DNA from: Escherichia phage vB_EcoM_UP17
Reading direction: 5' to 3' (one strand)
Length of the DNA: 64,000 bases
Sequence record: LR746137
In this document: piece by piece, positions 11,093 to 19,652 of the stretch
How the letters are laid out: every line of letters starts with the position of its first letter
How positions within the stretch are numbered: position 1 is the first letter of the stretch
Position numbers and translations under genes: made by a program
The notes under the pieces: generated by a model
What the model saw: the letters and a program-made list of their open reading frames with translations, nothing else
Databases searched by the model: none
Told to the model about the DNA's origin: nothing

Positions 11093-11497
11093 TTATTGAA
11101 GTTTAAGTGAACCACGAAGACGCTTCTCTTGCTGATCACGAATATATTGTGGAACCTCGTGAATTGAATCATTACCGTGCCTATTTTCAACAACTAAAGA
11201 GATAACTTGATAACCAAACTCTTCAGCAAGAGCTAGATAAGGTTTAAGTTCTTTCTCTGTGGTTGAAGTGTTAGAAACAATAATCTTGTTAAGATTAGAT
11301 GCCATAGCATCACGAACAATACTCTGACACCATGCGTGTGCTTTACCTACATTTTCTGGCTTCCAATCGTAAACACCACTTTCTGTGTAATGATATTGAT
11401 CTGCCTCACAGATAGGCCAATAACCTTCAGAAATAATTTCTGCTACTGTAGATTTACCAGCACCTGAAACGCCACGTAAAATGATAAGTTGTTTCAT
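11093..11497 (-). CDS. P-loop kinase, polynucleotide 5'-kinase-like
   Basis: ILRGVSGAGKSTVAE Walker A; small 134-aa kinase abutting the ligase-like gene (stop/start 11498/11497). Confidence 0.5.
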   Translation of the reverse strand: MKQLIILRGVSGAGKSTVAEIISEGYWPICEADQYHYTESGVYDWKPENVGKAHAWCQSIVRDAMASNLNKIIVSNTSTTEKELKPYLALAEEFGYQVISLVVENRHGNDSIHEVPQYIRDQQEKRLRGSLKLQ

Positions 11498-12430
11498 TTA
11501 TCCTCCAAAGAAGTTTTCGATTTTTTCACGTCGCTCTTGCTGATTTAAAGCAGCCCATTGAGTCTTCGTAAAATTATTTCGAATCCATTCTAACAAAGCG
11601 TAATATTCTTCGTCAACAATTTGTTTGGCATTTTTTGGATTATCCCAAATCAGATCCCACTTTTTATCTCCACCGCGCATAAGAAACTTCTTAGTAAGAT
11701 AGTATGGTGACTTAATCTTTAAGAGTAAGTTAAACGGATAGTTTGTTTCACGAACTACAAACCCTTCGTGTTTACAATCTTTAGACATTTCAACAACATC
11801 TGAAAACTTAACCATTGGATGAACTTCAGGACGCTTAAATTTGGTGACAGAAGCAATTCCATCAAGAGCACCTTCAGGTAACATAAAACTTGTCCCATCA
11901 GGGTTTTGAATTCTGGCACCAATTAAGTATGCACCTGGTTCTTCTTCGACAATATGCGGATCAGAAGGATCACAGATTTCAAAAAGGAAAGTTGCTTTTG
12001 CACTCTCTGTCCATTTGATGAAGTGTTCTATGTCATCACACTCTGAAACAATATGATTCTTTGCAATACTTGCAAAATCTGATTCAAGGCTTCCTGTTGT
12101 CGATACAATAAGTTGACCTTTATATACACCTACAGAGGCCATAAAACCATTTACTTTACGAACCACATCTACAAATTCATCCGCTGGTAGATCTGTGCCA
12201 TTCTCAAAACGATTAAAAATCTTAGTGAAAGGCCAAATAACAACATTATCATCAGCGTCAACAACGATTCCGCGACATTCTAGAAGACGAGAATCAATGT
12301 TCCATAAGTTATCCCAGAAAACTTTGTTCTTATACTTAAGAACAGATAGACCAGAATACTCTCCTTCTTTATATGTTTTCTTATGAACTAAACCTTTTTC
12401 AACCAAATCGTCGCAATTAAATTTAGCCAC
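11498..12430 (-). CDS. RNA ligase-like covalent nucleotidyltransferase
   Basis: RKVNGF (motif I, KxNG), FEICDP (III-like), EGFVVRE (IV), LLKIKSPYY (V) in order; flanked by a phosphoesterase and a kinase. Confidence 0.5.
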   Translation of the reverse strand: MAKFNCDDLVEKGLVHKKTYKEGEYSGLSVLKYKNKVFWDNLWNIDSRLLECRGIVVDADDNVVIWPFTKIFNRFENGTDLPADEFVDVVRKVNGFMASVGVYKGQLIVSTTGSLESDFASIAKNHIVSECDDIEHFIKWTESAKATFLFEICDPSDPHIVEEEPGAYLIGARIQNPDGTSFMLPEGALDGIASVTKFKRPEVHPMVKFSDVVEMSKDCKHEGFVVRETNYPFNLLLKIKSPYYLTKKFLMRGGDKKWDLIWDNPKNAKQIVDEEYYALLEWIRNNFTKTQWAALNQQERREKIENFFGG

Positions 12431-12431
12431 A

Positions 12432-12983
12432 TTACTCTCCTTTGATTATTTTGTGATGGTCTACAGTCACGATATCTCGTTTACTCATCATAGAAATTAT
12501 CTCATCAAAATGCAAGATTTTTCCGTGTGCATCCCAACCCACATCTAACATTTTGCCATAAGCTTCATCAGGGAAAGATCCGTGGGAATGCCCGTGTAGC
12601 ATGATTGATCCACGACCTTGTTTATTCCAGGAGGCCATAGGGTAATGACTTAAGACGAAGAACAGCTTCTGATATTTCACTTCATCATAATAAACCACTT
12701 CGCCATACTCTGCAAGCACTTCTCGGTGTTTGCTGTAATCATGGTTCCCAACACAGTAAGTAATATCTCCTTGGAGACGGGAAGCAATCTTACGGGTATC
12801 TTCTTCAGTCCCGAAACAGAAGTCGCCCAAATGCCACATCTTGACACCTGGACTCGTAGCGCATTTATTCCATGCTTCGATCAGTGCTTCTGTCATGTGG
12901 TCCATATCTTCCCACGGTCGATATTCAGGAGCAAACTCTCGTATACGTTTGTGCATAAAATGCAAATCACTTGTAATAAACAT
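12432..12983 (-). CDS. calcineurin-like metallophosphoesterase
   Basis: SDLHF (DxH), GDFCFG (GD), GNHDY (GNHD/E), HGHSH (GHxH) in canonical order. Confidence 0.6.
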   Translation of the reverse strand: MFITSDLHFMHKRIREFAPEYRPWEDMDHMTEALIEAWNKCATSPGVKMWHLGDFCFGTEEDTRKIASRLQGDITYCVGNHDYSKHREVLAEYGEVVYYDEVKYQKLFFVLSHYPMASWNKQGRGSIMLHGHSHGSFPDEAYGKMLDVGWDAHGKILHFDEIISMMSKRDIVTVDHHKIIKGE

Positions 12984-13339
12984 TAGTATAATCCCTCGCT
13001 AAATAGGTCACGATCATGACCATTACGTTCGTAGTCAATCTGGTCTGCGTGTTTTGCAATAATGTATGCATCTTCACGACTCCACCAATTGTAGTATTGA
13101 TCAATAAAACCTTGATTGTTTGGAAGACAATGCACTTTATCAAGCACACCTGCTTCTTTCAATATATTCAATTGTGCTGATAATACAGGATTTGCATGTC
13201 GAACACAAGGAATAATTAACTCTTCACCATTATTCAAAATATATTTATTCGCAGCACAGACGATAACACGTTGCGCATAATGACCCTCACCAATCCAGGC
13301 AAGAGGTTGGTAACAAATATTGTTTTCAATACCACTCAT
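12983..13339 (-). CDS. hypothetical protein (118 aa)
   Basis: ORF with GGAGG RBS, first gene of the phosphoesterase-ligase-kinase run; no motif recognised. Confidence 0.4.
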   Translation of the reverse strand: MSGIENNICYQPLAWIGEGHYAQRVIVCAANKYILNNGEELIIPCVRHANPVLSAQLNILKEAGVLDKVHCLPNNQGFIDQYYNWWSREDAYIIAKHADQIDYERNGHDRDLFSEGLY

Positions 13340-13359
13340 TGTTTCCTAATCCTCCTCTC

Positions 13360-13491
13360 TTAAGTTATCCTCGAAAAAAAACTAGTATCTGGAAGTAAAA
13401 GATCATTACTTGTGTCGGGCCAATCCTCTTCTTCTCGGTAGATAAAGTAACCTTCGTCCTCTTCTTGTTCCGACCAAACCGAATGATGCAT
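13360..13491 (-). CDS. small acidic ORF (43 aa), not in track
   Basis: ATG behind GGAGAG; hand translation MHHSVWSEQEEDEGYFIYREEEDWPDTSNDLLLPDTSFFSRIT. Confidence 0.25.
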   Translation of the reverse strand: MHHSVWSEQEEDEGYFIYREEEDWPDTSNDLLLPDTSFFSRIT

Positions 13492-13500
13492 GTTCTCTCC

Positions 13501-13857
13501 TTAATAGTGCACACGAATCATTTTAATACCATAACGCAGCATGGATTCTTTTGCAAGCATGAATTTATCCCCAGCGGAGGGATTAGAAGTATGCACGAAA
13601 ATGGTAGGTGAACCAAAGCAAGGTTTACCAAACGCCAGAAGTTCTTCCAGGCACAGGAAAACATCATACCCATCTTGGTCAGAATATTCACCCAAATCGT
13701 TGTCAAAATGCCACTCGTCTACAAAACGATAACCCTTCTGCACCTCATTCATGTAGCGAGAGGCAAGAAGTTCCTGTGATGTTTTAAACCAGATTGCATC
13801 TGGACAACCATAATCTTTTGGATCACGTAAATCATCAAGCCAAATAATAGTACCCAT
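13501..13857 (-). CDS. hypothetical protein with receiver-like pattern (118 aa)
   Basis: MGTIIWLDDLRDP ... DGYDVFLCLEEL ... PTIFVHTSNP loosely recalls a CheY-like alternation; unverified. Confidence 0.35.
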   Translation of the reverse strand: MGTIIWLDDLRDPKDYGCPDAIWFKTSQELLASRYMNEVQKGYRFVDEWHFDNDLGEYSDQDGYDVFLCLEELLAFGKPCFGSPTIFVHTSNPSAGDKFMLAKESMLRYGIKMIRVHY

Positions 13858-13867
13858 ATAACCTCCT

Positions 13868-14338
13868 CTAAGCTGGCATGATTAAAAAAGAACTCTCCAC
13901 TTCAAAATGCCAATCATCTACAAGCCCTGATTCCCAATCCTTCTCTTCATGGAAAGAGCAAATCCAACGGTACATACCTGGCGGTGTATTCTCCACATCT
14001 TCCGGCAACCCATAATCCAAGGCTGTCTTGCCATTCTCTGTAAAACCAGGGTGGAGATTAGGAGCTTTCAGTACAGAAACCATACCTCCAACATCCACAG
14101 CTACGATCCACTCTGTCATGTATGGGCTGTCATATTGAGGCTCATCAGAACCTACCTCAACAGCCTCTGTGCGTAAGATGATAATAGGCTGCTCTGTGAT
14201 TGGGGCTTTGACAATATAACCGTGGTCCTCAAAAAGATCGATAACCTCGAACTCATCGCCGTTTTCGACACCATAGCTCTTATTCAAAGAGATAAACTTC
14301 GGGTTATCATCGTAAGCTTTAGTTACTTTAATTCTCAT
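13868..14338 (-). CDS. hypothetical protein (156 aa)
   Basis: ORF from track; no motif recognised. Confidence 0.4.
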   Translation of the reverse strand: MRIKVTKAYDDNPKFISLNKSYGVENGDEFEVIDLFEDHGYIVKAPITEQPIIILRTEAVEVGSDEPQYDSPYMTEWIVAVDVGGMVSVLKAPNLHPGFTENGKTALDYGLPEDVENTPPGMYRWICSFHEEKDWESGLVDDWHFEVESSFLIMPA

Positions 14339-14559
14339 TTTCCCTCCTTCACTTTAACCTCAAATTCTACAGGCTTACCCTCAATGTAAAAACACTGATA
14401 CTCTGCCTTATCATCCTCATCACGAGGCCAAGTTACCAAGGAGTTATAGCAATCTTCTGGTGCTTTGAAGATGGTTTTAGTCTCCATAGTAACATTCCCA
14501 TTAAGTGTTGCCAATACCACCCACCCAGCTACAGGGATCATAGTGCCTCCACTTTCCAC
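14335..14559 (-). CDS. hypothetical protein (74 aa)
   Basis: ORF from track in a tightly packed early operon. Confidence 0.3.
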   Translation of the reverse strand: MESGGTMIPVAGWVVLATLNGNVTMETKTIFKAPEDCYNSLVTWPRDEDDKAEYQCFYIEGKPVEFEVKVKEGK

Positions 14560-14720
14560 GTTTTACCCTTATCAACCAAGGTCTTTGCTACAGCATACTC
14601 CTTCCCATTAACAATGAAATAATAAACTATAAAAGATTTTCCGATTGTTACTGTCTTAGTAACCTCTACGCGTTTAACACCTTGCATGTATTTTGCCTTA
14701 CCGGAATAGAGTAAAATCAT
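14538..14720 (-). CDS. hypothetical protein (60 aa)
   Basis: ORF from track. Confidence 0.3.
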   Translation of the reverse strand: MILLYSGKAKYMQGVKRVEVTKTVTIGKSFIVYYFIVNGKEYAVAKTLVDKGKTWKVEAL

Positions 14721-14998
14721 TTTGCATTCCTCTTGTTGTTGATAACATCCATAGCAGTATATGGTTTATTAGTGCCATGATACTCTAGAATCATTGGAGA
14801 GCCTTCTTGCACTACTTCAAAAATACCATAAACAGAACTTTCAGCAAATACCATTTGCTTCGTTCCTTCATCGTTTACAACAAGAGAAAACTTCTTGCCT
14901 GTTCCGTTGAGGATCTCGTATTTCTTGCCAACAGTGAATAATCCAGAGTACCACTCATTCTCTGTTGCTTTTACACACTTCAGGAAAGTCTTGATCAT
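14717..14998 (-). CDS. hypothetical protein (93 aa)
   Basis: ORF from track. Confidence 0.35.
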   Translation of the reverse strand: MIKTFLKCVKATENEWYSGLFTVGKKYEILNGTGKKFSLVVNDEGTKQMVFAESSVYGIFEVVQEGSPMILEYHGTNKPYTAMDVINNKRNAK

Positions 14999-15348
14999 TT
15001 CTTTTTGCTCCTCTTTTTAGATTTCTCATACAAACCTAACACAGCAGCTTCTTTTGCACAAGTAGGAACTGAAGTCATTCCTCTTCTTTTTGCTTCTGGT
15101 AGTTGCAAAGTCCATATTCCCCACCAATAAATTTGGTCTGCCGTGAGTGGTTCAGCCATTGGATCTGCCTCCTGCTCCTCAAGACGTTGCAACGCTTCTT
15201 CAATCTTCTCGATTGGTGTGTCAAAGACGAATGCCTCCGTATCAAACTTATTTTTCTTAGGAACTGATTTGGCTACTTTGAGAACCTCGTTTTTCGGTTT
15301 CTTAGTAACGTTCTTTGGCTTTGATAACTTCTTCGGTGTTTTCGCCAC
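14995..15348 (-). CDS. lysine-rich basic protein, possible nucleic-acid binder (117 aa)
   Basis: N-terminal MAKTPKKLSKPKNVTKKPKNEVLKVAKSVPKK and C-terminal KSKKRSKKK basic tracts. Confidence 0.35.
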   Translation of the reverse strand: MAKTPKKLSKPKNVTKKPKNEVLKVAKSVPKKNKFDTEAFVFDTPIEKIEEALQRLEEQEADPMAEPLTADQIYWWGIWTLQLPEAKRRGMTSVPTCAKEAAVLGLYEKSKKRSKKK

Positions 15349-15541
15349 TTACTACCTCCATACGATCTAAAAAGTCATTCACAAATCTCCAGTAACGTTG
15401 ACCTGTCCTAAGATCTTCATAAATAACTACAGGATCAAACACTTTAGATATTCCGGCAGGTTTTGGAAATTCCACTACCGTATATAAGCCACCTTTTGCT
15501 ACACAAGAATAGGTTACGCCTGTAATTGGATAGTTGCTCAT
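15302..15541 (-). CDS. hypothetical protein (79 aa)
   Basis: ORF from track; overlaps the downstream gene in another frame. Confidence 0.3.
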   Translation of the reverse strand: MSNYPITGVTYSCVAKGGLYTVVEFPKPAGISKVFDPVVIYEDLRTGQRYWRFVNDFLDRMEVVSGENTEEVIKAKERY

Positions 15542-15732
15542 TTCTTTACGTACTCCATGATTGGGGTATGGTCGCCAGTAAGCGTAACACGGCTGTAGGA
15601 CACATCTTGTGTCTTCAATGTATCAATCCACTCTAAGAAGTGTTCTTTCGCTTCTGTGTAGTTCTGCGTGCCTTTAACAACGTGTATACCATCTAGTGTT
15701 ACACGGAATACCATTTGAATAACGTCTTTCAT
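15538..15732 (-). CDS. hypothetical protein (64 aa)
   Basis: ORF from track. Confidence 0.3.
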   Translation of the reverse strand: MKDVIQMVFRVTLDGIHVVKGTQNYTEAKEHFLEWIDTLKTQDVSYSRVTLTGDHTPIMEYVKK

Positions 15733-15845
15733 TTCTTACCTCCTTTATTGTCAAAATAGCTTACCAGAACATCGTGAACCACACATATGGCAAAAATCAG
15801 AACAATTGTTGCCAGGACTGGATTCTCACTAATTAGTGCTATCAT
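15729..15845 (-). CDS. small membrane protein (38 aa; shortened from track ORF)
   Basis: Internal ATG behind GGAGGTGG; MIALISENPVLATIVLIFAICVV hydrophobic core. Confidence 0.3.
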   Translation of the reverse strand: MIALISENPVLATIVLIFAICVVHDVLVSYFDNKGGKK

Positions 15846-16152
15846 CTTTAACCACCTCCAATTGCCTTTCGAGTTTGACTCTGTTTGAGAACTGATAATG
15901 GCACAACTTACATTGCATGTCAACAATCTGATCGTGATTTAACCCTACAATTTTAACTTCCTTTGCACCATCCCACTCCAAATACTCAAAGCCATCCAAA
16001 TGATTACTCTTGTCCAACAGGAATGCTATCTGCTTCCATTCAATCTGAATGTCATTTAAATGATATGCTGCACAGAAGATATCCTCATAGTAAAAGACGA
16101 TCATTGTCATTGCTTCGTCCAGCACAACTACTTCTTGTCTTGTAAATCTCAT
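15829..16152 (-). CDS. hypothetical protein (107 aa), first gene of the minus-strand early unit
   Basis: ATG behind TAGGAGG, adjacent to the AT-rich control region. Confidence 0.4.
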   Translation of the reverse strand: MRFTRQEVVVLDEAMTMIVFYYEDIFCAAYHLNDIQIEWKQIAFLLDKSNHLDGFEYLEWDGAKEVKIVGLNHDQIVDMQCKLCHYQFSNRVKLERQLEVVKDDSTN

Positions 16153-16380
16153 TCTAGCCTCCTAAACGCGTCTCTGACGCACTTTTTATATATAAGATGA
16201 TAAATCACCTTACCTAGTAAGTAAGCTTGCTCTACGAGTCTCTTATGAAGCTTATGTTATAGGCTATACTATTGCTACCTGTTTAAGCAAGGTTTTTGCA
16301 CACAGAAAATAATTTTAATAAAACTCTTGACTTTTGTGTTCGAAGTATGCTACCCTAGAAATCTATTAACGAGCGCAGCG

Positions 16381-16405
16381 AGTTAAGGTTTAAGGTTTAA
16401 GGTTG
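16381..16405. repeat. short tandem repeat (TAAGGTT x3)
   Basis: GTTAAGGTTTAAGGTTTAAGGTTG read directly; followed by TGTACTC repeated three times (16419-16445). Confidence 0.6.
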
Positions 16406-16445
16406 TTGATGTAGTACTCTGTACTCAAGTACTGTACTCCGTACT

Positions 16446-16491
16446 AGATCTAATAATTATTAAATATTAATAATAAATAATTATTAGATCT
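16446..16491. repeat. perfect 16-bp inverted repeat with 14-bp AT spacer
   Basis: AGATCTAATAATTATT (16446-16461) and its exact reverse complement AATAATTATTAGATCT (16476-16491). Confidence 0.75.
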
Positions 16492-16640
16492 AACAGACAG
16501 GTACAGTGTATCAGAACTGGTACGTACAGATCAACTTCTATCAATTAAAAATAAAATAATAAATTATTATAAATAATACTTGATCTATAGATTAGTATGA
16601 AGTACAGTACGGAACATCTTAACAAGAATGGAGGTGTGCA

Positions 16641-16826
16641 ATGATTAGTGAGAATCCGTGCAAATGGCATCATGTGCCTATTAAAGATTGTATGTCTTGT
16701 AATCCACGTTCTATTTATAACATTGCATCTTATGACGATGACAATGTGTTAGACGATGATGAAGGCTGGGAGGATTTAGATTGGACTGGTTATGAAACCA
16801 AAAAGGATAAAATTATTCCTAGTTGA
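16641..16826 (+). CDS. small Cys-rich protein (61 aa)
   Basis: ATG behind GGAGGTG; PCKWHH...CMSCNP Cys/His cluster. Confidence 0.4.
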   Translation: MISENPCKWHHVPIKDCMSCNPRSIYNIASYDDDNVLDDDEGWEDLDWTGYETKKDKIIPS

Positions 16827-16863
16827 CTTAAGATATCCTTCGTGCTAAACTAGAAGTGAGGAG

Positions 16864-17115
16864 ATGCCGATCACTCCCCATTTGGGGTTCGAAGGATATA
16901 TGCAAAATAGTTTTTATTTTAGGTGCCGTGCTTGTAATAGGCATTTGACAAACCACTCCAGACGTGATAAAAATGGAGTCATCAAGGAATCAGACCTTTG
17001 TTCTATCTGCACAGGTTTGGCTTTTGATGATAGTCCCGAAAGGGTTTATCAGCATCAATATATAACAGACGTTCTCGTGTCAAACTTGGTAGAGGACGAA
17101 CAACTAACAGATTAG
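16864..17115 (+). CDS. small zinc-finger-like protein (83 aa)
   Basis: ATG behind GAGGAG; CRACNRH ... CSICTG. Confidence 0.4.
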   Translation: MPITPHLGFEGYMQNSFYFRCRACNRHLTNHSRRDKNGVIKESDLCSICTGLAFDDSPERVYQHQYITDVLVSNLVEDEQLTD

Positions 17116-17123
17116 GAGGAACA

Positions 17124-17372
17124 ATGTCTCTATTAGAAAAACACGTGTTTGAAGATGGTAACGGCAATGCAGTTTTTCTTTTCCATCCAGAAAAATACAC
17201 ATCTGAAAACAATGGTACAACTTCTATTGTAATCACTAAAGATGTTAAAGTTATTGATTTCTTGGCTCTGATGAGAGAAATGGATCTTGAAATTAATACT
17301 TTTAACGCAGAAGCTTTGGTTGTTGCTCTTCTGGAAAAGAAAGACAGTGAAGAAGTAGCAGAATATGCTTAA
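17124..17372 (+). CDS. hypothetical protein (82 aa)
   Basis: ATG behind TAGGAGGA. Confidence 0.4.
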   Translation: MSLLEKHVFEDGNGNAVFLFHPEKYTSENNGTTSIVITKDVKVIDFLALMREMDLEINTFNAEALVVALLEKKDSEEVAEYA

Positions 17373-17619: not shown

Positions 17620-17691
17620 GGCCCTGTAGCTCAATGGGAGAGCTGTCGGCTCATAACCGATAGGTAGCTGGATCGAAACCAGCCAGGGCCA
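17620..17691 (+). tRNA. tRNA-Met (anticodon CAT)
   Basis: Hand-folded cloverleaf: acceptor GGCCCTG/CAGGGCC, anticodon loop CTCATAA, T-arm GCTGG-ATCGAAA-CCAGC, encoded CCA. Confidence 0.7.
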
Positions 17692-17696
17692 CCAAC

Positions 17697-17768
17697 GTCT
17701 TTATGGTGTAATGGATAGCACAGGAGTCTTCTAAACTCTTAGTCAAGGTTCGATTCCTTGTAAAGACA
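17697..17768 (+). tRNA. tRNA-Arg (anticodon TCT)
   Basis: Acceptor GTCTTTA/TAAAGAC, anticodon stem GGAGT/ACTCT with loop CTTCTAA, T-arm CAAGG-TTCGATT-CCTTG, CCA encoded. Confidence 0.7.
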
Positions 17769-17967
17769 CCAGAACATTTTAACATGAATTAGCTCAAGTG
17801 ATTTGAACCCACTACTGATCATAGTGGCAGAGAATGAGGCAAGTATGTCAGACATTGTAAACAAAGGCCACGGTTACATTAGAAGATATAAATGCTCGAA
17901 GAGCACCGTTCGCTGAGAACGGGGGTTGGTGGAGTCACCATTCATGGTAAAATGTTTTAAAAAACTA

Positions 17968-17996
17968 TTGACAACTAACATTATTTTATGTTAGAT
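17968..17996 (+). promoter_or_regulatory. sigma70-like promoter (TTGACA, TATGTTAGAT)
   Basis: AAAACTATTGACAAC followed 13 nt later by TATGTTAGATTATAAG, 10 nt before tRNA-Ser. Confidence 0.45.
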
Positions 17997-18005
17997 TATA
18001 AGTAT

Positions 18006-18093
18006 GGAAGGGCAAATCGACGTGGTGACGAAAACGGTCTTGAAAACCGCCGAGCTTGAAAGAGCCTTGGGAGTTCGACTCTCCCTCCTTCCG
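18006..18093 (+). tRNA. tRNA-Ser (anticodon TGA), class II
   Basis: Acceptor GGAAGGG/TCCTTCC, anticodon loop CTTGAAA, long variable arm, T-arm GGGAG-TTCGACT-CTCCC, CCA encoded. Confidence 0.7.
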
Positions 18094-18101
18094 CCAGATT
18101 A

Positions 18102-18184
18102 GGTAGATTGGTGAAATGGTAGCCACGACAGTTTGCTAAACTGTAGTCGGAAACGGCGTGTAGGTTCGAGTCCTACATCTACCG
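18102..18184 (+). tRNA. tRNA-Ser (anticodon GCT), class II
   Basis: Acceptor GGTAGAT/ATCTACC, anticodon stem ACAGT/ACTGT with loop TTGCTAA, long variable arm, T-arm GTAGG-TTCGAGT-CCTAC. Confidence 0.7.
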
Positions 18185-18314
18185 CCAAGTTGTTTTTAAT
18201 GTAGCGTTGCGGCTACTTACTTTAGCAGAGTAAATCTTCGGCAAGTGGCGGTAACCACTTTACCGATACCGCATAGTCAGTAAGGCGAATACTGGCTACT
18301 TTAAAAACAATTTT

Positions 18315-18395
18315 GTGAGATTGGCAGAGTGGTCGATTGCGGGGGACTGTAAATCCCTTCTGAAAGGCGCGGTGGTTCGAATCCATCATCTCACA
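18315..18395 (+). tRNA. tRNA-Tyr (anticodon GTA), class II
   Basis: Acceptor GTGAGAT/ATCTCAC, anticodon stem GGGGA/TCCCT with loop CTGTAAA, long variable arm, T-arm GGTGG-TTCGAAT-CCATC. Confidence 0.7.
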
Positions 18396-18404
18396 CCAAA
18401 TTAA

Positions 18405-18487
18405 GATGAGTTGGCTGAATGGTTTAAGCGGCGGACTGTTAATCCGTGTTCGAAAGAACGATATAGGTTCAAATCCTATACTCATCG
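18405..18487 (+). tRNA. atypical class II tRNA, anticodon loop CTGTTAA (reads as GTT, Asn) with 15-nt variable arm
   Basis: Acceptor GATGAGT/ACTCATC, anticodon stem GCGGA/TCCGT, variable region GTTCGAAAGAACGAT, T-arm ATAGG-TTCAAAT-CCTAT; isotype assignment uncertain. Confidence 0.5.
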
Positions 18488-18497
18488 CCAGAATTAT

Positions 18498-18575
18498 GGA
18501 CTTGTAGAGTTAAGGTAAAACCTCCAGTCGCCAAGAGGCTTCTGGAATTGCAGGTATCGAATCCTGCCGAGTCCC
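18498..18575 (+). pseudogene. degenerate tRNA-like element
   Basis: Good 7-bp acceptor GGACTTG/CGAGTCC and T-arm GCAGG...CCTGC, but T-loop is 8 nt (TATCGAAT) and no canonical anticodon arm or CCA could be folded. Confidence 0.3.
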
Positions 18576-18581
18576 AGATTT

Positions 18582-18653
18582 GCTCCTATAGTATAATGGC
18601 TATTACAACGGTTTTGTAATCCGTGGATCTCTGTTCGATTCAGAGTGGGAGCA
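18582..18653 (+). tRNA. tRNA-Thr (anticodon TGT)
   Basis: Acceptor GCTCCTA/TGGGAGC, anticodon loop TTTGTAA, T-arm CTCTG-TTCGATT-CAGAG, CCA encoded. Confidence 0.7.
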
Positions 18654-18929
18654 CCAACACAACATTAAGAGCACTGTGATTGATCGTCGTATCCTGTGCA
18701 CAAGGTCTGTTCGAAAGACAGTGTTCTTAGTATTGTGTTGATCACACAAAGAGTCACCTGAAACTTGACCGGAGTAGGGTTGGATGGGGCAAAAGAAGAA
18801 GCGGCTCTCCCATCGACAGCAACGAAGAATAATATTTGACTTTAGTTTTGTATTATTTTAAGTTAGCTTACCGAACGTAGGGCTAGTCACCCAACGGGAT
18901 ACTCGTCACTGTCCCACTCAATAAAACTA

Positions 18930-18959
18930 TTGACAACCAATAGTAAAATGTAGTATAGT
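18930..18959 (+). promoter_or_regulatory. sigma70-like promoter with extended -10 (TTGACA, TGTAGTATAGT)
   Basis: AAAACTATTGACAACC followed 13 nt later by TGTAGTATAGT, 11 nt before tRNA-Gly. Confidence 0.45.
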
Positions 18960-18970
18960 AAAGATGTAGG

Positions 18971-19041
18971 GCGTTCTTGGTGTAGCGGTAGCATTCCGTC
19001 CTTCCAAGTCGGCGGCACGAGTTCGATCCTCGTAGGACGCT
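18971..19041 (+). tRNA. tRNA-Gly (anticodon TCC)
   Basis: Acceptor GCGTTCT/AGGACGC, anticodon loop CTTCCAA, T-arm ACGAG-TTCGATC-CTCGT, CCA encoded. Confidence 0.65.
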
Positions 19042-19142
19042 CCAAATTATTTAATAAAGGGTTGCCAGAAAACTTTCTCTTTTACTCATGGTTTTCTCCT
19101 TCTCTCACACCTCTTCTGGTTGCCCTTCATTAAATGATTTAT

Positions 19143-19215
19143 TGGTTTGTAGTGTAGTCAGGTAGCACACGACACTTTGACTGTCGTAGGTTTGGTTCAA
19201 ATCCAGACAGACCAG
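19143..19215 (+). tRNA. tRNA-Gln (anticodon TTG)
   Basis: U1-A72 acceptor TGGTTTG/CAGACCA (as in enterobacterial tRNA-Gln), anticodon stem CGACA/TGTCG with loop CTTTGAC, T-arm TTTGG-TTCAAAT-CCAGA, CCA encoded. Confidence 0.65.
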
Positions 19216-19223
19216 CCATATAA

Positions 19224-19297
19224 CGGAATTTAGCTCAGTTTGGTAGAGCATACGCTTTGGGAGCGTAGGGTCGCAGGTTCGAATCCTGCAATTCCGA
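19224..19297 (+). tRNA. tRNA-Pro (anticodon TGG)
   Basis: Acceptor CGGAATT/AATTCCG, anticodon stem TACGC/GCGTA with loop TTTGGGA, T-arm GCAGG-TTCGAAT-CCTGC, CCA encoded. Confidence 0.7.
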
Positions 19298-19306
19298 CCA
19301 ATTTAA

Positions 19307-19377
19307 TGTTTCGTAGTTCAATGGTAGAACCCACGACTGATAATCGTGAGACACAAGTTCGATTCTTGTCGAAACAA
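19307..19377 (+). tRNA. tRNA-Ile (anticodon GAT)
   Basis: Acceptor TGTTTCG/CGAAACA, D-stem GTTC/GAAC, anticodon stem CACGA/TCGTG with loop CTGATAA, T-arm ACAAG-TTCGATT-CTTGT, CCA encoded. Confidence 0.65.
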
Positions 19378-19382
19378 CCAGT

Positions 19383-19452
19383 TTCCCGTTAGACTTACAG
19401 GATAAGAGTTCCACAGCTTATTGTGATGCTGGTTCGAATCCAGCACGGGATA
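19383..19452 (+). pseudogene. degenerate tRNA-like element
   Basis: Canonical T-arm GCTGG-TTCGAAT-CCAGC and 6-bp acceptor, but the anticodon region folds as CACAG-CTTA-TTGTG (4-nt loop) and no CCA is encoded. Confidence 0.3.
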
Positions 19453-19458
19453 CATAAT

Positions 19459-19534
19459 AGCGGGATAGAGGAGTCTGGTCGTCCTCGCCAGTTTCATATG
19501 CTGGAGATCATTGGTTCAAATCCAATTCCCGCCT
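19459..19534 (+). tRNA. tRNA with anticodon CAT (Met or lysidine-type Ile2)
   Basis: Acceptor AGCGGGA/TCCCGCC with mismatched 1:72, D-stem GAGG/CCTC, anticodon stem CCAGT/GCTGG with loop TTCATAT, T-arm ATTGG-TTCAAAT-CCAAT, CCA encoded. Confidence 0.6.
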
Positions 19535-19652
19535 CCAAATATCGCTTGCCAGCGGTATCTTTGAAGAACTTGCCTGGTTCCTTCTAAGATGGAGGGGTGC
19601 GACTCCTTAACGCACAATCATAATAAAGCATTTCAAATTAACAGTATTTATT

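Follow-up and report, generated by a model that had tools for sequence, protein, structure and literature searches.

In phage T4, the cleavage of tRNA-Lys by the anticodon nuclease PrrC is reversed by a polynucleotide kinase-phosphatase (PseT) and RNA ligase 1 (RnlA) (reviewed in PMC3400036). Bacterial repair systems of the Pnkp type, Pnkp/Hen1 of Clostridium thermocellum and Pnkp1-Rnl-Hen1, contain a calcineurin-like module (PMC1920235, PMC4411300). Gene-neighbourhood analyses have linked to RNA ligase and other RNA-repair genes a family of proteins named cREC (cyclic-phosphate-processing receiver), which was defined in 2021 (Viruses, PMC7824862) and surveyed again in 2022 (PMC9503650). Beside T4-like RNA ligases these proteins are predicted to open 2',3'-cyclic phosphates, and the prediction also covers the processing of ADPr>P and cADPR (PMC7824862, PMC9503650). 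The 2022 survey describes them as receiver-related, experimentally uncharacterised and never tied to histidine kinases (PMC9503650), and a keyword search of the later literature returned no newer cREC experiment. [quoted passage not shown]

The window studied here (the whole stretch of 64,000 nucleotides) comes from a Phapecoctavirus, a phAPEC8-like myovirus with ~97% identity to several genomes. A first-pass annotation had singled out positions 13340-16152 as a block of about twelve small genes with no recognisable function. The actual count is eleven (twelve only if the next gene, at 12983-13339, is included), all of them on the minus strand and within the size range of 38-156 aa given there:

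K, 15829-16152, minus strand: 107 aa, acidic (pI 4.8), first gene, preceded by the SD TAGGAGG
J, 15729-15845, minus strand: 38 aa, a single hydrophobic helix (maximum hydropathy 2.7)
I, 15538-15732, minus strand: 64 aa
H, 15302-15541, minus strand: 79 aa, its 3' end overlapping G by 47 nt
G, 14995-15348, minus strand: 117 aa, pI 9.7, GTG start, SD TGGAGG
F, 14717-14998, minus strand: 93 aa
E, 14538-14720, minus strand: 60 aa, basic
D, 14335-14541, minus strand: 68 aa from ATG, hydrophobic N-terminus
C, 13868-14338, minus strand: 156 aa, acidic
B, 13501-13857, minus strand: 118 aa, single-domain cREC, predicted phosphoesterase
A, 13360-13491, minus strand: 43 aa, very acidic (net -10)

The eleven ORFs are genuine genes. 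They fill 98.6% of the region on a single strand, compared with 34.5 +/- 10% (at most 66%) when the region was resampled 500 times with a first-order Markov model, which bears out the tight packing described earlier. Each of the eleven is preceded by a ribosome-binding site of the GGAG/GAGG type, and six junctions are 4-nt overlaps of the ATGA type. The ORFs are annotated alike in more than 65 Phapecoctavirus genomes, and at least 80% of the block, at 90-99% identity, is present in 65 of 76 genomes. Wherever an ORF has a diverged orthologue, pN is much lower than pS, and synonymous sites are saturated. It could be argued that some or all of these ORFs are chance frames in a non-coding or regulatory region, several of them being very short (38-64 aa) and without a known family. 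Against the coding fraction, the ribosome-binding sites with their coupled overlaps, the selection on diverged relatives and the lack of any Rfam match in the region, this explanation has practically no chance of being correct.

The earlier annotation had also set the block apart from the adjacent repair genes, and this separation does not hold. From K to the polynucleotide kinase gene the largest intergenic gap is 20 nt, so that the block and the repair genes belong to a single operon, in which the following elements accompany the block:

Putative sigma-70-type promoter, 16197..16225, minus strand, leftward: -35 CTTACT at 16225-16220, 17-nt spacer, -10 TATCAT at 16202-16197
X118, 12983-13339, minus strand: 118 aa, T4_Y16D family (PF26092), between A and the phosphoesterase, outside the block
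RNA-repair cassette, 11093..12983, minus strand: contiguous with the block and outside it, made up of the next three genes
Calcineurin-like phosphoesterase, 12432-12983, minus strand: Pfam Metallophos, PHROG phosphoesterase
T4 Rnl1-type RNA ligase, 11498-12430, minus strand: Pfam RNA_lig_T4_1 (PF09511), PHROG RNA ligase
P-loop polynucleotide-kinase-like protein, 11093-11497, minus strand: Pfam AAA_33, PHROG polynucleotide kinase

An array of phage tRNA genes is located nearby. The only minus-strand terminator-like match in the scanned interval (12853-12825) falls inside the phosphoesterase gene, downstream of the block, and none was found within the block itself. Genes for a DNA ligase, a MazG-like protein, RdgC, an exonuclease, a nucleotidase and ThyX follow in the same operon. 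The whole is thus one long leftward operon that starts at the divergent intergenic region at ~16.2 kb and runs through RNA-repair, DNA-ligase, MazG-like, RdgC and nucleotide-metabolism genes, the block being its promoter-proximal part. That position, already proposed in the first-pass annotation, agrees with the conserved sigma-70-like element upstream of K. The putative promoter, recognised from sequence alone, stays below the 9/12 threshold set for the promoter scan; the aligned site reads TTGACA-17-TATCAT in Klebsiella phage 175008 and TTGACT-17-TACCAT in Citrobacter phage Tr1, and a block at the promoter (GGTGATTnnnCATC) is kept in five Stephanstirmvirinae. Downstream of it come a 5' UTR hairpin (GCGTCAGAGACGC) and then the SD of K. 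The conservation of this promoter suggests that the block would be expressed early; a single keyword search for expression studies of this phage group found nothing relevant, and the PhageExpressionAtlas paper names none of these phages.

The eleven genes do not form one functional unit and fall into three groups: K, J, I and H; G; and F, E, D, C, B and A. Our interpretation, which we hold with slightly better than even confidence, is that the block is the promoter-proximal part of one leftward operon, composed of these three groups, in which B serves as the cREC of a tRNA-repair counter-defence pathway. B matches PF20274 with 50.2 bits (cut-off 27; E = 4.2e-13) over profile positions 2-83 of 88, and precomputed Pfam assigns the same family to its relatives in related contigs. 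A receiver active site has an acidic pair following strand 1, an Asp following strand 3 and a conserved Thr/Ser and Lys; in B it is intact, with D8, D9, D52, N53, D54, T90, S91 and K98 invariant among five orthologues whose overall identity is just 50-56%. The block had been said to include a receiver-like protein, which is right at the level of the fold; as a classical receiver B has to be discarded, since this single-domain protein has no Response_reg (PF00072) match and only cREC_REC appears at E <= 1. It is instead a cREC, a family tied to RNA ligase and RNA repair.

The genomic context of B points in the same direction. Proteins of the cREC family, stand-alone or fused to Nudix, occur with RNA-ligase, RNA-repair or NAD/ADPr genes, and B shares an operon with the phosphoesterase, the Rnl1-type ligase and the kinase; these three consecutive genes supply the complete heal-and-seal set of the T4 type (5'-kinase, 3'-end phosphoesterase and Rnl1 ligase). 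In six IMG/VR contigs (L018-L023) the cREC gene stands between those for Rnl1 and the kinase, in the order G-...-MPE-...-Rnl-...-cREC-PNK-Sir2. Most likely, B would open the 2',3'-cyclic phosphate ends that host anticodon nucleases leave on tRNAs; after removal of the phosphate by the calcineurin-like phosphoesterase and phosphorylation of the 5'-OH by the kinase, the tRNA would be resealed by the Rnl1-type ligase. Should these steps be true, B and the cassette would constitute a counter-defence pathway.

Several points weigh against this interpretation. The calcineurin-like phosphoesterase of the Clostridium thermocellum Pnkp enzyme heals cyclic ends on its own, and if the phage enzyme could do likewise the cREC would have no necessary role. 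The window contains no sirtuin, in contrast to the published rV5-type neighbourhood. The cREC has also diverged considerably more than the genes around it, with 49% identity to the phi92 protein compared with 83-92% for the phosphoesterase, ligase and kinase. Finally, Citrobacter phage Tr1, Klebsiella phage 175008 (no homologue of ligase or kinase in the ~96% of the genome searched) and one contig (L025) retain cREC, X118 and the phosphoesterase but have neither RNA ligase nor kinase, a pattern that fits poorly with a simple heal-and-seal role. This last pattern also speaks for a different function, in which cREC and phosphoesterase, perhaps with A, X118 and G, would not repair RNA and would destroy or recycle molecules of NAD+/ADP-ribose conflicts, such as ADP-ribose cyclic phosphates, cyclic ADPR-type signals or 2',3'-cNMPs. 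In the phages devoid of ligase and kinase, PRPP-synthetase-like and NAMPT-like genes lie immediately beyond the divergent promoter (NAD+-reconstitution genes of the NARP1 type occur just beyond it in the sister genera), the published cREC prediction names ADPr>P and cADPR, and a MazG-like pyrophosphatase lies downstream in the operon. However, the operon that contains the cREC in the window also encodes the full set of kinase, phosphoesterase and Rnl1, NARP1-type genes are absent, and both in rV5 and in the six contigs above the cREC directly abuts RNA ligase or kinase. We consider this alternative improbable and retain tRNA repair as the preferred role of B.

G is the lysine-rich basic protein that the first-pass annotation had mentioned, just as J corresponds to its small membrane protein and A, K and C to its acidic ones. 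It has lysine-rich tails at both ends and a conserved core (KFDxTAFVF ... YWxGxW ... AKRRGM..VP.CA.E...LGLY), and its family comprises 137 clusters at 90% identity, of 92-133 aa. Pfam searches gave no family for G, for 19 further cluster representatives or, as precomputed assignments, for 120 listed members. Relatives of G are labelled "transposase-like" (IS3/IS911-type HTH), a name that goes back to the annotation of ORF92 of rV5; no transposase or HTH family matched. To judge by its composition G probably binds nucleic acid. A metallophosphoesterase or its remnant was found near the G homologue in 27 of 29 loci (none in the other two), and these loci span phages of Escherichia, Klebsiella, Citrobacter and Aeromonas as well as metagenomic viral contigs. 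DNA ligase is near G in every sampled lineage, in 23 of the 29 loci by tblastn and in five of the other six by Pfam annotation, while the remaining locus (L053) ends before the expected position of the ligase. In several phage lineages the RNA-repair cassette is placed between the two genes. Throughout, G and DNA ligase hold their positions and what lies from G to the phosphoesterase or DNA ligase differs among phi92, Tr1, 175008, the IMG/VR groups and the Aeromonas-type contigs. G is therefore a backbone gene conserved in several related lineages of phages, and a variable slot extends from it to the DNA ligase, with G at its upstream edge. Since G persists in two contigs where the RNA-repair genes are absent, any functional tie between G and the cassette is hypothetical.

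The four genes ahead of G are lineage-restricted leader genes. Orthologues of K in phi92, Tr1 and 175008 are 34-49% identical, with pN well below pS, and K is represented by only 7 clusters in 1.84 billion representatives, confined to Stephanstirmvirinae-like phages; it has no Pfam, PADLOC or PDB match. J, likely a membrane peptide to judge from its hydropathy, is confined to Phapecoctavirus (one cluster, absent from phi92, Tr1 and 175008); phrog_26968 spans exactly its 38-aa form, and comparison with one other Phapecoctavirus genome showed 3 synonymous and 2 non-synonymous changes. Across the subfamily the orthologues of I are 48-53% identical (four clusters), with neither a Pfam family nor a significant PDB match by sequence. 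H is the most conserved protein of the block, with 73-84% identity across the subfamily and dN/dS of 0.06-0.11, and its overlap with G is retained in all subfamily loci. A resemblance of H to DUF1653 (PF07866; 13.4 bits against a gathering threshold of 23.5, E = 0.1) was a mere lead, and among the representatives no relative of H showed this domain at E <= 0.01 or in precomputed Pfam.

K, I, H and G keep their order throughout the subfamily and are under strong purifying selection. Another possibility is that G, perhaps together with H, K and I, belongs to the core accessory proteins of replication, recombination or transcription, for example as a small basic DNA-binding protein that works with DNA ligase, RdgC and exonuclease. 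The selection on H and G, the proximity of G to an ATP-dependent DNA ligase in all lineages sampled, its retention in contigs devoid of RNA repair and the continuation of the operon into the ligase, RdgC, exonuclease, nucleotidase and ThyX genes would agree with such a role. On the other hand, G and its sampled relatives belong to no DNA-binding or helix-turn-helix family, the sole PDB similarity of G (phi29 p16.7, E = 0.5) is insignificant, and K, I and H are confined to Stephanstirmvirinae-like phages, a distribution that speaks against their being essential core genes. A core function of these genes strikes us as quite improbable.

F, E, D, C, B and A are the cargo of the slot, together with X118 and the genes for the phosphoesterase, RNA ligase and kinase. 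F, probably beta-rich, is found at 65% identity in phi92-like phages and is absent from Tr1 and 175008; its only matches, all sub-threshold, were lipocalin/FABP-like. Orthologues of E exist in phi92 (74%) and 175008 (66%), in two clusters, and among the loci compared D has an orthologue in 175008 only (59%). For D we adopted the 68-aa form annotated in relatives, with the SD GGAGG before its ATG; an alternative GTG at 14559 would give 74 aa. C consists of an N-terminal SH3-like barrel (approximately residues 1-62) and a C-terminal DUF8046 (PF26219; approximately residues 68-156), a domain that precomputed Pfam assigns to identical and related proteins; no match indicates its function. One database entry names such a protein GyrI-like or "integron-associated effector-binding", and C does not have the SHS2-type alpha+beta fold that this name implies. 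The C-terminus of A is shorter here (43 aa) than in relatives (47-49 aa), whereas residues 1-39/40 are 78-97% identical in Phapecoctavirus and phi92-like phages (one cluster, conserved WSEQEEDEG...SNDLLLPD). X118 is called an "anti-restriction nuclease" in some genomes, a mislabel of the T4_Y16D family.

The statement that the block lacks recognisable function holds for most of its genes, 9 of the 11 having no family in Pfam or its newer precomputed version; B (cREC) and C (DUF8046) have one, and for the cREC family a function is predicted. Eight ORFs (all except B, C and G) have no family, PDB match or defence-library match. PADLOC matched none of the 10 proteins scanned out of 12 (B to I, K and X118), PDB searches by sequence gave no significant match for B, C, F, G, H, I, K and X118, and fold prediction covered C and X118. 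We found no positive link to any function for K, J, I, H, F, E, D, C and A. Our best guess is that the small proteins other than B act as accessory or counter-defence factors by binding macromolecules of the host or the phage.

The first-pass annotation had seen in the block a cluster of host-takeover and anti-defence genes. In its broadest form, this means that the whole block encodes early proteins of that kind that work independently of the repair genes, such as inhibitors binding to defence or housekeeping proteins of the host. In its favour, the block stands at the promoter-proximal end of the operon, after a sigma-70-like promoter, its proteins are small, several of them acidic or basic and one a membrane peptide, and most are limited to one subfamily (1-9 clusters each in the 1.84 billion representatives). 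F, E, D, C and A stand in a slot of changing content beside a predicted counter-defence cassette, with NARP1-type genes across the divergent promoter in sister genera. Yet there is no PADLOC, Pfam, NCBIfam or solved-structure match to support the idea, although the solved set includes many anti-defence proteins; the block is stable within the genus and not hypervariable; the order and selection of K, I, H and G fit core as well as accessory roles; and B, possibly also G, belongs with the repair genes. For the block as a whole we find the proposal rather unlikely. What survives of it concerns the slot: a lineage-variable position shared with a predicted counter-defence cassette is a typical place for accessory factors, and an anti-defence or host-takeover role of the slot genes is plausible. 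More tentatively, the stretch from G to DNA ligase could be a counter-defence island in which F, E, D, C, A and X118 join a conflict over broken tRNA or NAD-derived nucleotides, with the G family as a new RNA-binding partner of the phosphoesterase/Rnl1/kinase cassette, an extension that we regard as doubtful.

T7 gene 0.3 (Ocr) and the early small ORFs of T4 are promoter-proximal early accessory genes. The genes of the block resemble them in lying directly behind a host-type promoter, in their small size and in having homologues in close relatives only, and differ in showing no sequence or fold similarity to characterised members and in being stable within the genus. As in T4 tRNA repair, both ends would be healed and sealing would fall to a ligase of the Rnl1 family (PF09511), with a phage tRNA array close by, but the kinase is a stand-alone P-loop protein of 134 aa without the HAD phosphatase domain of its T4 counterpart, and 3'-end healing would fall to the calcineurin-like phosphoesterase, the cREC or both. 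The metallophosphoesterase beside kinase and ligase, as a predicted healer of 2',3'-cyclic phosphate or 3'-phosphate ends, recalls bacterial Pnkp, although here the activities would reside in separate small proteins rather than in one polypeptide, Hen1 methyltransferase is missing and a cREC is added. With CheY-like receivers (PF00072) B shares the pattern of acidic pair, Asp, Thr/Ser and Lys, as expected for a family described as receiver-related, but it does not match the classical model and has neither a histidine kinase partner nor an output domain. In common with the rV5-type neighbourhood, the window has a cREC, whose catalytic residues are intact, together with a ligase of the Rnl1 type, a P-loop kinase, a calcineurin-like phosphoesterase and, further downstream, a MazG-like gene; in the window all of these are on one strand. 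The 64-kb window differs in containing no sirtuin, and A, X118 and the phosphoesterase gene stand between its cREC and the ligase, whereas the cREC of rV5 directly adjoins the ligase; the G family, DUF8046 and T4_Y16D proteins that share the slot here are not part of the published description. By its sequence, then, B is a member of the published cREC kind, and its link to RNA-repair genes matches the published neighbourhood analyses.

The 3.5 kb around the block of small ORFs at 13340-16152 shares 94-98% identity with more than 60 Phapecoctavirus genomes, in which the same reading frames are annotated as hypothetical proteins. This genus comprises phAPEC8-like E. coli myoviruses of ~150 kb, within the subfamily Stephanstirmvirinae. 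Minus-strand genes occupy the window up to ~16.15 kb, where the GC skew switches sign together with the gene strand; a 490-nt intergenic region separates them from three small ORFs on the plus strand, an array of eleven tRNA genes, the terminase gene and the genes for structural proteins. The block itself consists of eleven minus-strand ORFs (13360-16152), here called K to A in reading order, with A nearest to the repair genes. Coverage of the interval by these ORFs is 98.6%, whereas ORFs of the same size reached 34.5 ± 10% in 500 composition-preserving resamplings, and a correctly spaced Shine-Dalgarno motif precedes every one of them. Six junctions have 4-nt overlaps, while H and G overlap by 47 nt behind the strong TGGAGG-GTG start of G. 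Compared with phi92, EmilieFrey, Citrobacter phage Tr1 and Klebsiella phage 175008, the block ORFs with a diverged orthologue gave pN values of 0.10-0.40 against a nearly saturated pS of 0.56-1.05, with dN/dS of 0.06-0.29 where computable. The tightly packed, overlapping genes described in the first-pass annotation are thus real (coverage, Shine-Dalgarno sites, pN below pS), but they number eleven and not about twelve. Its remarks on composition were right: B is receiver-like, G is lysine-rich and basic (pI 9.7), J is a hydrophobic protein of 38 aa, and A, C and K are acidic.

The block had also been regarded as a unit apart from the repair genes, and this view does not hold. The largest intergenic gap from K down to the kinase gene (11093) is 20 nt, and a scan detected no minus-strand terminator-like site within the block, the sole minus-strand match lying downstream, inside the phosphoesterase gene. 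Past A, the gene order is a 118-aa protein of the T4_Y16D family (X118, 12983-13339), a calcineurin-like phosphoesterase, a T4 Rnl1-type RNA ligase and a P-loop kinase (polynucleotide kinase-related in PHROGs), the last three referred to here as the cassette. The operon continues with DNA ligase, a MazG-like protein, RdgC, an exonuclease, a nucleotidase and ThyX. The block forms the leading part of an operon for RNA repair and DNA metabolism and is not a unit of its own.

B (13501-13857) was the only protein of the block to give a Pfam match in the Pfam, NCBIfam and PADLOC scans; PADLOC gave no match in the ten proteins scanned (K, I, H, G, F, E, D, C, B and X118). B matched PF20274 (cREC) with 50 bits (threshold 27) and none of the classical receiver models in Pfam, and the receiver catalytic set (D8, D9, D52, D54, T90, K98) is kept in five orthologues of 50-56% identity. 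By these sequence criteria B is a cREC domain protein. Genome comparisons defined this family as a phosphoesterase of receiver origin, and its predicted activity is the opening of 2',3'-cyclic phosphates carried by RNA or by ADP-ribose derivatives (PMC7824862, PMC9503650). It occurs with RNA ligases and never with histidine kinases, and was experimentally uncharacterised according to the 2022 survey (PMC9503650); our literature search for experimental work on cREC turned up nothing useful. The published rV5-type neighbourhood comprises a sirtuin, a T4-like tRNA ligase, cREC, a kinase, MazG and sometimes a calcineurin-like phosphoesterase (PMC9503650). The cREC gene of rV5 and the end of its RNA ligase gene overlap, with Sir2 and MazG next, and six IMG/VR contigs have cREC between the RNA ligase and the kinase, which confirms the linkage of cREC and RNA ligase independently of the published analyses. 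The absence of recognisable function noted at first is true of most block ORFs but not of B, for which a predicted role was already published.

Most likely, B and the cassette would act together in the healing of nuclease-cut tRNA ends before ligation. The simple version of this tRNA-healing role is weakened by two observations. In Tr1, 175008 and one IMG/VR contig (L025), cREC and the phosphoesterase are retained while the RNA ligase and kinase are missing from the syntenic place (in 175008, no homologue of either was found in the ~96% of the genome searched), and cREC is more diverged than the cassette enzymes, with 49% identity to its phi92 counterpart against 83-92% for phosphoesterase, ligase and kinase. 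Both observations keep alive a different reading, in which the substrates of cREC and the phosphoesterase are nucleotides derived from NAD. Along these lines, X118 persists with the two genes in Tr1 and 175008, and sister genera carry, just across the divergent promoter, a pair of PRPP-synthetase-like and NAMPT-like genes of the NARP1 type, an NAD+ reconstitution pair studied in Bas63. The pair follows the rightward promoter in phi92, EmilieFrey, Tr1 and 175008 but is absent from this window, where the same position (16641-17372) holds three small ORFs of 61, 83 and 82 aa. The macro-domain phosphatase and the aRad1 inhibitors of the aRES/NARP1 study, considered as a lead for the phosphoesterase, are unrelated to it. 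In 175008 a sirtuin gene lies away from the syntenic locus, at 29.3-30.2 kb.

Divergence from phi92 is mosaic across 11093-13857. Synonymous sites of the phosphoesterase, ligase and kinase are unsaturated (pS 0.35-0.44), whereas cREC and the small ORFs upstream of it (the latter 42-74% identical) have pS of 0.59-0.90, and the cREC of the window is nearer to that of rV5 (56%) than to that of phi92. This pattern suggests either that genera recently exchanged the ligase cassette or that the cREC allele was replaced.

The lysine-rich ORF G (14995-15348) belongs to a family of 137 clusters at 90% identity (92-133 aa), with variable lysine-rich tails and a conserved core (KFDxTAFVF, YWxGxW, AKRRGM..VP.CA.E...LGLY). 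The family has no Pfam entry, and its sole names are "hypothetical" or "transposase-like", the latter taken from rV5 ORF92 and unsupported by Pfam scans of G and its relatives. Of 29 loci with a G homologue, 27 have a metallophosphoesterase or its remnant near G, in 24 of them 0.3-2.9 kb downstream on the same strand. Contigs of the Aeromonas phiA019 type have the order G, phosphoesterase, Rnl1 and kinase, with a 4-nt overlap. Since G stands directly upstream of phosphoesterase, ligase and kinase in these and in IMG/VR contigs, we had considered it an obligate subunit of the RNA-repair cassette. Four further distant loci spoke against the idea: one had the full cassette with cREC, one only remnants and two no RNA-repair genes. 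G is therefore better described as a conserved syntenic anchor, although a direct functional tie to the cassette is possible. Where present, the cassette is downstream of G, in most lineages between G and DNA ligase. Aeromonas-type relatives (L048, 5784-6491) have a Thg1-like gene, of a tRNA 5'-end repair family, upstream of G in the same operon. In the two cassette-free loci (L052 and L054, 5336-6391) G is directly followed by a CapR/T5orf172-type (homing-endonuclease-like) gene and then by DNA ligase, which would fit an insertion hot spot at this position.

K, I, H, G, cREC, X118 and the phosphoesterase were present in all the Stephanstirmvirinae-like loci examined, except that X118 was undetected in contig L025, while F, E, D, C, A and J vary in presence and are substituted by other small ORFs. 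Within Phapecoctavirus the block is stable. Part of it sits in a variable, conflict-associated slot, but nothing links the ORFs other than B to host takeover or anti-defence. The original observation was correct and its interpretation right in part, for the lack of a known function in most of the genes and for the place of some of them in such a slot.

All eleven ORFs were assigned to PHROGs, none with a described function, and the region gave no match to an Rfam family. Neither NCBIfam nor Pfam, local or precomputed, held a family for K, J, I, H, F, E, D and A, and none of these proteins resembled a PDB sequence significantly. A single search of 1.84 billion representatives, with the small proteins concatenated into one query, returned 9 clusters for H, 7 for K, 4 for I, 3 for F, 2 each for E and D and 1 each for A and J, with no Pfam domains in the best 150 matches. 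H is the most conserved ORF of the block (73-84% identity across the subfamily); a DUF1653 assignment for it was below threshold and unsupported, and a literature search on this domain found nothing useful. The name "integron-associated effector-binding" for C is ruled out by its predicted fold, with an SH3-like barrel. X118 is no longer regarded as specific to the repair cassette, because members of its family occur also in unrelated contexts; its confidently predicted structure matched no solved structural relative, and the fusion partners of X118 and H relatives contained no Pfam domains. A (13360-13491, minus strand) ends in ...SFFSRIT at 43 aa while most relatives reach 47-49 aa and end in ...EDNLREED or ADRLKEYGEN, suggesting a small indel or a frameshift close to the 3' end of its gene. 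Escherichia phage vB_EcoM_UP17 has this 43-aa form too, and its versions of A and C are identical to those of the window.

An alignment of the intergenic region over five subfamily members revealed two conserved elements, the first two of the following features.

16225-16197, minus strand: leftward sigma-70-like element, CTTACT-17-TATCAT, ~45 nt upstream of K, followed by a hairpin and then a ribosome-binding site
~16327-16385, plus strand: rightward element, TTGACT-18-TGCTACCCT then CGAGCGCAGCGAG, invariant in five related phages
15895-15923, minus strand: closest match to the sigma-70 consensus in the region, TTGACA-17-CATTAT with upstream TG (10/12), within the coding sequence of K, ~50 nt before the start of J
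~16383-16404: three tandem TTAAGGT units, in the divergent intergenic region (16153-16640)
~16410-16446: five GTACT-containing repeats, with inverted copies at 16593-16610
16445-16492: 48-nt AT-rich perfect-type palindrome
17620-19537, plus strand: tRNA array (Met, Arg-TCT, Ser-GCT, Tyr, Asn, Thr-TGT, Gly-TCC, Gln, Pro, Ile, Met), between the divergent region and the terminase

The leftward element reads TTGACA-17-TATCAT in 175008 and TTGACT-17-TACCAT in Tr1, and its conservation makes early transcription of the block by the host polymerase plausible; a literature search found no transcriptome of this phage group. The match within K could be an internal promoter or have arisen by chance. The divergent region could be an origin, a regulatory hub or both. 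The eleven-gene array lacks tRNA-Lys, a point in which phi92 differs.

If cREC and the phosphoesterase, or any of the small proteins, do counter tRNA-cleaving or NAD-depleting defences, this common group of therapeutic-candidate E. coli phages would offer new counter-defence factors as a tractable set. The locus would also be a first test bed for the predicted cREC enzyme, and the stretch from G to DNA ligase a defined insertion slot in which to find more such factors. The remaining ORFs encode conserved hypothetical proteins that tell us little and are found already in dozens of genomes in the databases. The main result at present is that what had looked like a block of unknown ORFs is, in part, where an RNA-repair operon of a known type begins.
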